Part shown: positions 9,666 to 12,004 of the stretch, in pieces
Layout of the letters: each line of letters begins with the position of its first letter
How positions within the stretch are numbered: the stretch's first letter is position 1
Virus record (IMG/VR): IMGVR_UViG_3300029060_000166
Direction: 5' to 3' (one strand)
From: a virus
Taxonomy: Duplodnaviria > Heunggongvirae > Uroviricota > Caudoviricetes
DNA length: 12,292 nt
Program-made: the position numbers and the translations under genes
The notes under the pieces: generated by a model
Database searches by the model: none
Seen by the model: only the letters and a program-made list of their open reading frames with translations
What the model was told of the DNA's origin: nothing

Positions 9666-11729
9666 ATGACAGTAAAAATTTCTGGCGTGCTTAAAGATGG
9701 CACAGGAAAACCAGTACAGAACTGCACCATTGTGCTGAAGGCCAGACGAACCAGCAGCACGGTGGTGGTGAACACGGTGGCCTCTGAAAATCCGGATGAA
9801 GCCGGACGTTACAGCATGGATGTTGAGCATGGTCAGTACAGCGTCACCCTGCTGGTTGAAGGTTTTCCGCCTTCACATGCCGGGACCATTACCGTCTATG
9901 AAGGTTCCAGACCAGGTACGCTGAATGATTTTCTCGGCGCCATGACGGAGGATGATGTTCGTCCGGAGGCACTGCGCCGTTTTGAGCTGATGGTGAATGA
10001 AGTGGCACGTCATGCCGGAGCGTCATCACAGAGTGCAGCGGCGGCAAAGAAATCCGAAACGGCAGCAGCCTCATCGAAGAATGCGGCGAAAACCTCAGAA
10101 ACGAATGCAGCTAACAGCGCACAGGCGGCAGCGGCCTCGCAGACTGCATCGGCAAACTCCGCGACAGCAGCCAAAAAATCAGAAACCAGCGCGAAAAATA
10201 GCGAGACAGCCACAAAGGCCAGCGAAAAAAACGCAAAATCCAGCCAGACGGCAGCGAAAACCAGTGAGACGAATGCCAAAGACAGTGAAGCCAACGCAAA
10301 GGTGAGCGAAACAGCGGCGGCGAACTCGGCGAAAGCATCGGCAGCAAGCCAGACGGCAGCAAAAGCAAGTGAAGATGCTGCCAGAGAATACGCAAACCAG
10401 ACAGCAGAGCCGTACAGATATGTTTTACAGCCGCTGCCGGATGTGTGGATACCCTTTAATGATTCGCTGGATATGATTACGGGCTATTCTCCGGGTTATA
10501 AAAAAGTGAAGATTGGTGATAATGTGGTTCAGGTTGCCAGTGATAAACAGGTTAATTTCAGTCGCGCATCAACGGCAACATATATCAACAAATCTGGCGA
10601 ACTGAAAACGGCGGAAATTAATGAGCCACGATTTGAAAAAGAAGGTTTATTGATTGAAGGTCAGCGAACCAACTACATGTTGAATTCAGCAACTCCAGCT
10701 TCTTGGGGTAAATCTGCAAATATGAATGTCGCTGAGGTTGGAACTGATAGTTTTGGTTTTACTTATGGAAAGTTTGTTTGTAACGATTCTCTGATTGGGC
10801 AAACGTCAGCCATTAATATGGCATCAATTGCTGCTACAAAGTCAGTTGATGTTTCAGGCGATAACAAGTACGTGACAACCTCATGTCGTTTTAAAACAGA
10901 ACGACAGGTAAGGTTGCGTATCCGCTTTGATAAATATGACGGTAGTGCAACAACTTTTCTTGGTGATGCATATATTGATACACAAACGCTTGAAATTAAT
11001 ATGACAGGTGGCGCGGCCTCAGGGATTACAGCGAGAGTCAGAAAGGACGAAGCTACCGGATGGATTTTTGCAGAGGCAACAATCCTGGCAATTGATGATG
11101 AGTTAAAAATAGGATCTCAGATACAGTATTCTCCTAATCAGGGCGGAGCAACCGTATCTGGAGACTATATTTATCTGGCCACCCCTCAGGTTGAGGATGG
11201 TTCGTGTGCATCATCTTTTATTATCTCAGGAACGACGGCGGCTACCCGCGCAAGCGATATAGTTACAGTTCCAATTAATAATAATCTTTATAATCTTCCT
11301 TTTACGGTTCTTTGTGAGGTACATAAGAACTGGTATAAAACGCCAAATGCAGCGCCACGTGTTTTTGATACCGGCGGTCATCAAACCGGAGCGGCTATTA
11401 TTCTTGGCTTCGGATCTTCGGCAGATGGGCCAGACGGATTTCCTTATTGCGATATTGGTGGATCAAATAGGCGTGTTAACGAAAACGCATCGTTGAAAAA
11501 AATGGTTATGGGGATGCGTGTAAAGTCAGATCAGTCTACATGTGCAGTAAGTAACGGGCGTATATCCAGCGAAACAAAAACCACATGGGAATATATCCGG
11601 AGTACAGCAATCATTCGCATTGGTGGACAAACTACAGCAGGATTACGCCATTTATTTGGGCATGTGAGGAATTTTCGTCTCTGGCATAAAGAGCTAACAG
11701 ATGCGCAGCTTGGGGAGGTTGTGGAGTGA
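9666..11729 (+). CDS. stf: Side tail fibre protein (687 aa), mosaic: lambda Stf-like N-terminal domain, low-complexity repeat spacer, non-lambda C-terminal putative receptor-binding module
   Basis: N-terminal ~110 aa (MTVKISGVLKDGTGKPVQNCTI..GRYSMDVEHGQYSV..GFPPSHAGTITVYE..GTLNDFL) matches the N-terminus of lambda Stf as I recall it. An Ala/Ser/Thr/Lys-rich repeat region follows, then a lower-GC C-terminal half without the His/Gly-rich repeats of lambda Stf. Confidence 0.88.
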   Translation: MTVKISGVLKDGTGKPVQNCTIVLKARRTSSTVVVNTVASENPDEAGRYSMDVEHGQYSVTLLVEGFPPSHAGTITVYEGSRPGTLNDFLGAMTEDDVRPEALRRFELMVNEVARHAGASSQSAAAAKKSETAAASSKNAAKTSETNAANSAQAAAASQTASANSATAAKKSETSAKNSETATKASEKNAKSSQTAAKTSETNAKDSEANAKVSETAAANSAKASAASQTAAKASEDAAREYANQTAEPYRYVLQPLPDVWIPFNDSLDMITGYSPGYKKVKIGDNVVQVASDKQVNFSRASTATYINKSGELKTAEINEPRFEKEGLLIEGQRTNYMLNSATPASWGKSANMNVAEVGTDSFGFTYGKFVCNDSLIGQTSAINMASIAATKSVDVSGDNKYVTTSCRFKTERQVRLRIRFDKYDGSATTFLGDAYIDTQTLEINMTGGAASGITARVRKDEATGWIFAEATILAIDDELKIGSQIQYSPNQGGATVSGDYIYLATPQVEDGSCASSFIISGTTAATRASDIVTVPINNNLYNLPFTVLCEVHKNWYKTPNAAPRVFDTGGHQTGAAIILGFGSSADGPDGFPYCDIGGSNRRVNENASLKKMVMGMRVKSDQSTCAVSNGRISSETKTTWEYIRSTAIIRIGGQTTAGLRHLFGHVRNFRLWHKELTDAQLGEVVE
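10020..10390 (+). repeat. Degenerate in-frame tandem repeats inside stf encoding a KxSETxA-like Ala/Ser/Thr/Lys-rich spacer
   Basis: Recurring nucleotide units (aaatccgaaacggcagc / aaaacctcagaaacgaatgc / aaaaaatcagaaaccagcgc / agcgagacagccacaaag / accagtgagacgaatgcc / gtgagcgaaacagcggcg) encode repeated K-x-SET-x-A motifs. The three overlapping phantom ORFs in this span (9997-10305 +, 10010-10294 -, 10111-10395 -) are artefacts of this low complexity. Confidence 0.7.
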
Positions 11730-12004
11730 GAGATTTCACGTTGCGTTTCAGTGATAAAGCAGATTTCAGGGCATTTCTCAGGAAACTTAACTGGGAAGAG
11801 GACGAAGAGCTGCAGAATGCCGTTCTGGTTGATGAGATTGGTTTTACGTTCAGTGAGTCAGGTGTTTCTGCTGACGGGGAGCCTGAATACACGCGAGACG
11901 AAGGGTACTTTGTTAATATTCGTCTTCTTGACGATGGATTTGATGATTCCGTGTTCCGTGAGTGGGTGGTTACACCAGAGCGCCCGCTCAGGGAGTGGTT
12001 TTAA
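11726..12004 (+). CDS. Hypothetical acidic 92-aa protein translationally coupled to stf; candidate fibre chaperone or assembly factor
   Basis: GTG start at 11726 overlaps the stf stop (GTGA). A strong GGGGAGG Shine-Dalgarno sits at about 11710-11716, inside the 3' end of stf. The protein is Asp/Glu-rich (EEDEELQ, DDGFDDS). It occupies the position where tfa lies in lambda but is half the size of Tfa and I see no resemblance to it. Confidence 0.55.
   Translation: MRDFTLRFSDKADFRAFLRKLNWEEDEELQNAVLVDEIGFTFSESGVSADGEPEYTRDEGYFVNIRLLDDGFDDSVFREWVVTPERPLREWF

Follow-up and report, generated by a model that had tools for sequence, protein, structure and literature searches.

What does a very small gene do when it is locked behind a side tail fibre gene, in the position that lambdoid phages normally give to the fibre assembly gene tfa? 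The question is raised by an open reading frame (ORF) of 92 codons, hereafter ORF92, in a 12,292-nucleotide stretch of viral DNA (IMG/VR virus record IMGVR_UViG_3300029060_000166, Caudoviricetes; hereafter the window) that contains the tail end of a lambdoid prophage. An earlier note, made from the letters of this DNA alone, had proposed that its product might be a chaperone or adaptor dedicated to the receptor-binding module of the fibre. In the present analysis, ORF92 is found to be a real gene, translationally coupled to the side tail fibre gene stf, and to form one mobile cassette, with strict two-way linkage, with the fibre tip encoded just upstream (the last ~425 amino acids (aa) of Stf, here termed StfC). 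Its role is tentatively read as that of a trans-acting assembly factor for StfC, an interpretation drawn from sequence comparisons and held at somewhat less than even confidence. The features on which this argument depends are the following.

9666..11729, + strand: stf, side tail fibre gene, 687 aa (ORF; PF08400 phage_tail_N at aa 1-131, E 4e-68; phrog_1419 tail protein)
10452..11726, + strand: StfC, the last 425 aa of Stf (aa 263-687), a mobile tip that always precedes ORF92 (tblastn)
10650..11252, + strand: GTA head-spike-fibre-like domain, Stf aa 329-529, the hypervariable core (NF048003, E 1.5e-14)
11283..11726, + strand: C-terminal ~150 aa of Stf, basic, with a conserved tail (…GHVRNFRLWHKELTDAQLGEVVE; isoelectric point (pI) and tail motif in relatives)
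11712..11718, + strand: Shine-Dalgarno sequence GGGGAGG within the final stf codons (read from the sequence)
11726..12004, + strand: ORF92, small acidic protein of the PHROG 1361 family, with a GTG start overlapping the stf stop

At the junction of the two genes, which reads ...CTTGGGGAGGTTGTGGAGTGAGAG..., the GTG start codon of ORF92 (11726-11728) and the TGA stop codon of stf (11727-11729) share the 4-nt overlap GTGA, and the GGGGAGG is separated from the GTG by a spacer of 7 nt; both the overlap and the ribosome-binding site are thus present as first described, and no promoter-like or terminator-like site lies between the genes. The 92-aa translation contains no internal methionine and is indeed strongly acidic, with a computed pI of 4.23, a net charge of -12.5, 23 acidic (D+E) against 11 basic (K+R) residues, and a grand average of hydropathy (GRAVY) of -0.61. 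Homologues were detected by tblastn in 187 phage records, 181 of them at a coverage of at least 80% and starting at residue 1, and the reading frame was intact in all 87 homologues of 92 aa among the fetched loci, with a dN/dS of ~0.39 among close relatives. The coupling recurs in relatives as well: the start codon is GTG in the closest ones and mostly ATG at the same position in more distant ones (with one GTG), the overlap between fibre gene and ORF amounts either to 4 nt (ATGA or GTGA) or to a single base, and equivalents of the Shine-Dalgarno sequence (GAGG, AGGAG or GGGGGA) are embedded in the last fibre codons.

The linkage with StfC was complete in each set of loci. Among the 93 loci found through the ORF itself, comprising the window, 12 annotated phages of six groups and 80 IMG/VR contigs, ORF92 stands directly behind StfC in every one (93/93). 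Both genes were likewise present in 80/80 loci found independently through a downstream motif, and the six members looked up among the most remote, metagenomic ones of the ORF92 family all lie directly behind a gene matching the StfC profile, four of them strongly (E 5e-64 to 2e-10) and the other two, which are short fragments, weakly (E 1.6e-4 and 0.025). Occurrence of ORF92 apart from the C-terminal module of Stf, named beforehand as the observation that would count against a fibre role, was never seen. The annotated phages in which ORF92 directly follows the fibre gene include lambdoid phages (phage 21 and 2G7a/2G7b), T5-like phages (IrisVonRoten, SelmaRatti, fp01 and AKFV33), T1-like Drexlerviridae (tinuso and SECphi27), JenP1 (Queuovirinae), KarlBarth (Dhillonvirus) and the rV5-like JeffSchatz. 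JeffSchatz gp26 and rV5 gp41 have the shaft in common and are 91% identical over 1049 aa, and rV5 has a different tip and lacks both StfC and ORF92. In SelmaRatti and PhiR11, a divergent StfC is followed by divergent members of the ORF92 family, and in two remote contigs the upstream gene encodes a shaft-less StfC-like protein of 418-435 aa. The sole apparent exception is one locus (L077:1417-3833) in which three transposase-sized ORFs (141, 116 and 537 aa) lie inside stf, between StfC residue ~374 and ORF92, as they also do in phages 1W, 4A7 and Lambda_4C10; these ORFs apparently represent an insertion element disrupting stf.

The N-terminal domain of Stf (aa 1-131) is of the lambdoid PF08400 type, and StfC is not lambda-like; its conserved neck leads into a hypervariable domain, and its C-terminal domain is basic. 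StfC was detected by tblastn in 228 phage records and is 45-72% identical to its counterparts in phage 21, T5-like, Dhillonvirus and rV5-like fibres. The description of the C-terminal half of Stf as foreign to lambda is supported by two matches: aa 329-529, the lowest-identity segment among close relatives, match the NCBIfam family NF048003 (GTA_spike_fiber, 'phage head spike fiber domain'), and aa ~298-544 match the head spike fibre of RcGTA, Rcc01080 (PDB 6TB9, E 3e-8). The homology of the latter is with the variable core of the tip and not with ORF92. Its alignment is confined to these residues, leaving the C-terminal ~145 aa without a detected counterpart; in addition, no ORF92-like gene follows the fibre gene of the RcapMu relative. 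Rcc01080 is a lectin-like binder of capsular polysaccharide (PMC10218006), and the StfC-homologous end of IrisVonRoten Gp22 has been described as a galectin-like domain protruding from the proximal fibre (PMC11990801). Two portions of StfC are well preserved, namely the neck (aa 258-340), which is 70-90% identical among most of the 13 phages compared, and a tail motif, GH[IV][RK]N[FL]R[IY]W..LT..Q, which is kept even in remote family members. The tip is otherwise a mosaic, in that segments 258-340, 340-540, 540-640 and 640-687 give discordant identities between the same phage pairs (window versus L001-L009, L090, L093 and L094), implying frequent recombination inside the tip across phage families. 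Neither a Tfa nor an S74 (PF13884) match was found in Stf with Pfam, and phage 21, which has the same arrangement, carries no tfa gene after the cassette. A further observation concerns one metagenomic contig (L181:2736-4525), in which a standalone StfC-like protein of 418 aa is encoded two genes after the major capsid gene, followed by an ORF92-family member and a 78-aa ORF resembling a second, diverged copy; the position of this StfC-like gene recalls the head-spike role of the RcGTA homologue.

ORF92 itself matches phrog_1361, a family of unknown function, and the match spans both the entire protein and the entire profile (1-92 against 1-92 of 92 positions, E 2.9e-39). Searches of Pfam and NCBIfam gave no relative, including no match to Caudo_TAP (PF02413) at E<=1 in Pfam or at all in NCBIfam and no match to S74 (PF13884) in Pfam; there was no PADLOC match to defence-related families and no sequence relative in PDB. 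Homology to Tfa, S74, gp38 or defence proteins was considered and set aside, no match having been obtained in Pfam, NCBIfam or PADLOC. The AlphaFold2 model, built from a 59-sequence alignment, is confident (pLDDT 85) and predicts an alpha/beta fold with one strand, two helices and a four-stranded sheet; a Foldseek search of PDB with this model matched no solved fold (best E 0.025), and its BFVD matches are uncharacterised small phage proteins only. Homology to a protein of known function, the second observation that the earlier note had set against its proposal, was therefore found in none of Pfam, NCBIfam, PADLOC, PDB, Foldseek or BFVD, and the unlikeness to Tfa that it had remarked on holds. 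The family is star-like, with identities of ~45-55%. A profile search of 1.84 billion representative proteins yielded 101 clusters, in which genuine members are standalone proteins, mostly of 85-110 aa, and a fusion to a fibre was never seen. Fusions were also considered as a functional clue and set aside, as the long multi-match proteins are PKD-repeat or TPR proteins with a short motif in common and were taken as spurious. Among them, the giant PKD-repeat proteins P0171, P0176, P0180 and P0210 match the ORF92 profile in multiple stretches through a 'DxGDG...Y.VNVRVxDD'-like motif, which probably reflects motif-level chance rather than homology, since the ORF92 model is alpha/beta and not immunoglobulin-like. 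No paper naming the family was found in literature searches by locus tags and family identifiers, and papers on BASEL and T5-like fibres describe the flanking fibres and not this protein. ORF92 would thus be a fibre accessory protein without detectable relationship to known accessory families, already present in PHROGs with no assigned function.

Downstream of ORF92, a further fibre gene begins after ~10 nt in most non-lambdoid and many lambdoid relatives, so that ORF92 is flanked by a proximal and a distal fibre gene in T5-like, Queuovirinae, Drexlerviridae, Dhillonvirus and some lambdoid phages. A two-gene form, in which the distal fibre gene is missing, is found in the window, phage 21, 2G7a and JeffSchatz. 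The distal proteins have unrelated bodies and a common N-terminal peptide of ~17-37 aa, MVTKTVIPxDIxxLK..., which occurs twice in tandem in SECphi27 gp79 and is encoded at the following positions in relatives.

L002:5289-5400, L006:4289-4400, L008:4792-4900, L005:4292-4400 and L004:5270-5345: N-terminal peptide of the distal fibre protein

Among all matches listed from the phage collection, the peptide was seen only directly after ORF92, and when IMG/VR loci were retrieved by the peptide alone, 80/80 carried ORF92 at most 420 nt upstream together with StfC. Residues 27-110 of the T5-type distal fibre also occur inside continuous fibres elsewhere, for instance in DT571/2 LtfA, from which it follows that the N-terminal peptide marks a non-covalent break point. 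An S74 chaperone domain (PF13884) is present in the distal fibre in eight of the nine three-gene relatives checked, the exception being KarlBarth.

The strict linkage of ORF92 with StfC does not extend to the variable parts of the tip. In a matrix of 13 phages, the ORFs of phage 21 and 2G7a are 93% identical and their StfC residues 340-640 only 26-32% identical, whereas the window and 2G7b share 81-91% identity over StfC residues 340-687 and only 42% between their ORFs. A co-divergence of ORF92 with StfC that was seemingly present at first proved in this matrix to be mostly linkage among close relatives, because segments of StfC recombine independently. The notion of a chaperone tuned to the receptor-binding domain was dropped on the same ground: variation in ORF92 does not track that in the hypervariable parts of StfC, and on sequence comparison ORF92 is therefore a generic partner of the StfC module, not tuned to receptor specificity. 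As a consequence of this independence, any contact between the two proteins would have to involve features conserved across the family, and candidate sites may be the neck (aa 258-340) or the C-terminal tail motif. Of the initial proposal of a fibre chaperone or adaptor, the real and coupled gene, its attachment to StfC and its distinctness from Tfa have stood, and the dedication to the receptor-binding part has fallen.

The tentatively preferred reading, that of a trans-acting assembly factor, starts from the location of the ORF92 start codon and Shine-Dalgarno sequence within the last fibre codons, because of which the two proteins would be made in roughly equal amounts. ORF92 would then bind StfC at sites that are conserved rather than variable, probably in its basic C-terminal domain or tail, and would supply in trans the assembly or folding function that is missing in cis from the StfC tip, either leaving the finished fibre afterwards or staying with it. 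It would stand in for the Tfa of lambda-type fibres and the self-cleaving S74 domain of T5-type fibres. A chaperone role is suggested by elimination, because StfC is the only one among the fibre proteins of these loci without a known folding aid. Consistent with this role, ORF92 occupies the tfa position, has its translation coupled to that of the fibre gene and travels with the tip when the latter is swapped. It is intact in two-gene cassettes (80 IMG/VR prophage loci besides the window and phage 21), is kept beside shaft-less StfC-like proteins and is never fused to the fibre. The charges are in keeping with this role as well: ORF92 is acidic and the fibre end basic, the single exception being SelmaRatti, where both are near pI 5. 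The resemblance to Tfa (lambda Tfa, Mu gpU and P2 gpG; PF02413) lies in a gene directly after the fibre gene that is swapped with the fibre C-terminal part, in the candidacy of both as trans-acting folding aids, and in the N-terminal PF08400 domain that the window Stf shares with lambda-type stf; on the other hand, ORF92 shows no sequence match, is half the size, and is predicted to adopt an alpha/beta fold without a solved relative. The S74 domain (T5 pb1, endosialidases and related fibres) assists folding from the C-terminus and is not retained in the mature fibre. Alternative alleles of the same fibres, such as DT57C LtfA (PMC4728585), and distal fibres after ORF92 carry it at the corresponding site; however, it is fused in cis and self-cleaving, whereas ORF92 is always a separate polypeptide.

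Several observations weigh against an assembly factor. ORF92, unlike Tfa, does not co-vary with the variable tip, and it evolves fast (dN/dS ~0.4, star-like at 45-55%) while the StfC neck stays at 70-90% identity. A tagged fusion of Rcc01080 bound cells when produced by itself in E. coli (PMC10218006), which indicates that such a partner is not an intrinsic requirement of the lectin-like core. In many phages, the placement of ORF92 between proximal and distal fibre genes would be just as compatible with a joint protein. The StfC monomer model, for which only homologues of at least 85% identity were supplied, is unusable (pLDDT 39).

The main rival explanation, possible although on balance doubtful, is that ORF92 is a virion component, a joint or adaptor at the end of StfC on which the distal fibre docks through its N-terminal peptide; the copy in the window would then be a socket with nothing docked in it, or a tip cap. 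The gene order in three-gene cassettes, the sharing of the first ~17-37 aa by otherwise unrelated distal proteins, the confinement of this peptide to the position directly after ORF92 and its appearance as a non-covalent break point all argue for such a joint. In phage T4, the hinge proteins gp35/gp36, like small tailspike adaptors, are encoded between proximal and distal fibre genes and join the two non-covalently. Three-gene ORF92 cassettes show the same gene order as gp35/gp36, but no homology to ORF92 was detected, and ORF92 persists without a distal fibre. StfC, moreover, is equally always present, and the peptide may dock on StfC itself; in IrisVonRoten, the distal fibre Gp24 has been described as attaching to the proximal fibre, with no mention of the small intervening protein (PMC11990801). 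Also weighing against a joint are the intact state of ORF92, under purifying selection, in abundant two-gene cassettes without a distal fibre, its retention next to shaft-less StfC-like proteins in remote lineages, and the fact that ORF92 types do not segregate by two-gene versus three-gene context. The virion proteomics of AKFV33 covers four large gel bands only, and the rV5 proteome is uninformative on ORF92 because rV5 lacks the cassette. Assembly factor and joint are not exclusive, as a chaperone may stay bound. An extension of the joint, which we regard as unlikely, is that ORF92 and the conserved end of StfC form a universal socket taking any distal receptor-binding protein that bears the ~20-aa MVTKTVIPxDIxxLK peptide. 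If true, this would explain the exchange of unrelated distal tips among lambdoid, T5-like, T1-like, Queuovirinae and Dhillonvirus phages, and would offer a portable handle for engineering branched fibres.

A quite improbable alternative is that ORF92, in stoichiometric amounts, masks or modulates the lectin-like C-terminal domain, which is basic, through acidic mimicry of its ligand, either keeping new fibres off host envelope material and each other until release or tuning receptor binding by the virion. The pI of ORF92 is 4.05-4.4 in 29 of 30 distinct homologues; for the final 150 residues of the fibre, the value was computable in 29 distinct loci and falls at 8.3-9.6 in 28 of them. This complementarity of charge (ORF pI about 4.1-4.4 against 8.3-9.6) is conserved, which is suggestive. 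Two further points speak for a mask: SelmaRatti, the exception in charge, has shifted both partners, with a fibre end at pI 5.49 and ORF and fibre end both near pI 5, and ORF92 is always a separate polypeptide. Nevertheless, the net charges of ORF and fibre end are uncorrelated pair by pair (-18.5 versus +1.2 in JeffSchatz, -9.5 versus +7.3 in tinuso), and the proposal is purely inferential.

Least probable of all is a function unrelated to the fibre, in which ORF92 would be an acidic moron or a DNA-mimic-like anti-defence protein hitch-hiking beside a recombination hot spot: the protein is small, very acidic and fast-evolving, and morons are common near lambdoid fibre genes (lom upstream in the window, sitABCD downstream in phage 21). 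Against such a function, ORF92 is strictly adjacent to StfC, with overlapping start and stop codons, in six unrelated groups of virulent and temperate phages, often between two fibre genes; it is lost jointly with StfC in rV5, is confined to fibre loci, has no PADLOC match, and lies in a position that implies late-operon expression.

The remainder of the window conforms to the tail end of a lambdoid prophage, with M, L, K and I lying in this order between the tape measure gene and J. The features outside the cassette are listed below.

2-2452: tape measure gene, truncated by the window start
5155-8847: J
8915-9514: lom
9618..9647, + strand: terminator-like hairpin between lom and stf, a 13-bp stem followed by a T run
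12014..12292, + strand: small membrane protein gene, start only, running off the window (phrog_1443, E 1e-50)

An annotated terminator of phage 21 stands at the position equivalent to the 9618-9647 hairpin, and a second terminator-like hairpin is present at 8866-8885, directly before lom; the two flank lom and thereby isolate it as a moron between J and stf. The protein encoded from 12014 onward, whose family phrog_1443 is of unknown function, has a weak Phage_holin_8 match (E 6e-4) and no PADLOC match, and its phage 21 homologue, CPT_21_24, is annotated with two transmembrane domains; the gene trails the fibre cassette in lambdoid loci only, with or without an intervening distal fibre gene. 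In the 343-nt gap between I and J (4812-5154), the only content is a 113-aa GTG ORF (4833-5174) with no PHROG match. An equivalent unannotated gap exists in PPompW and Stx phages (L099), and Rfam gave no RNA family anywhere in the window, this gap included.

The cassette is far from rare. DNA similar to 11400-12292, the cassette end, is present in 1904 of 5426 complete E. coli genomes, about a third, and RefSeq annotates the match only as 'hypothetical protein'; the cassette also occurs in phage 21 and in the BASEL model phages Bas17, Bas32, Bas34 and Bas55, from whose published fibre description ORF92 has been omitted. A practical rule emerges from the data, namely that the transferable unit is StfC plus ORF92, to which a distal protein with the N-terminal peptide may or may not be added. 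If ORF92 is a joint, it would define a portable docking system. If it is an assembly factor, its co-expression would be needed for producing recombinant receptor-binding proteins of this type, and it would have to be moved along with the tip when phages are retargeted.

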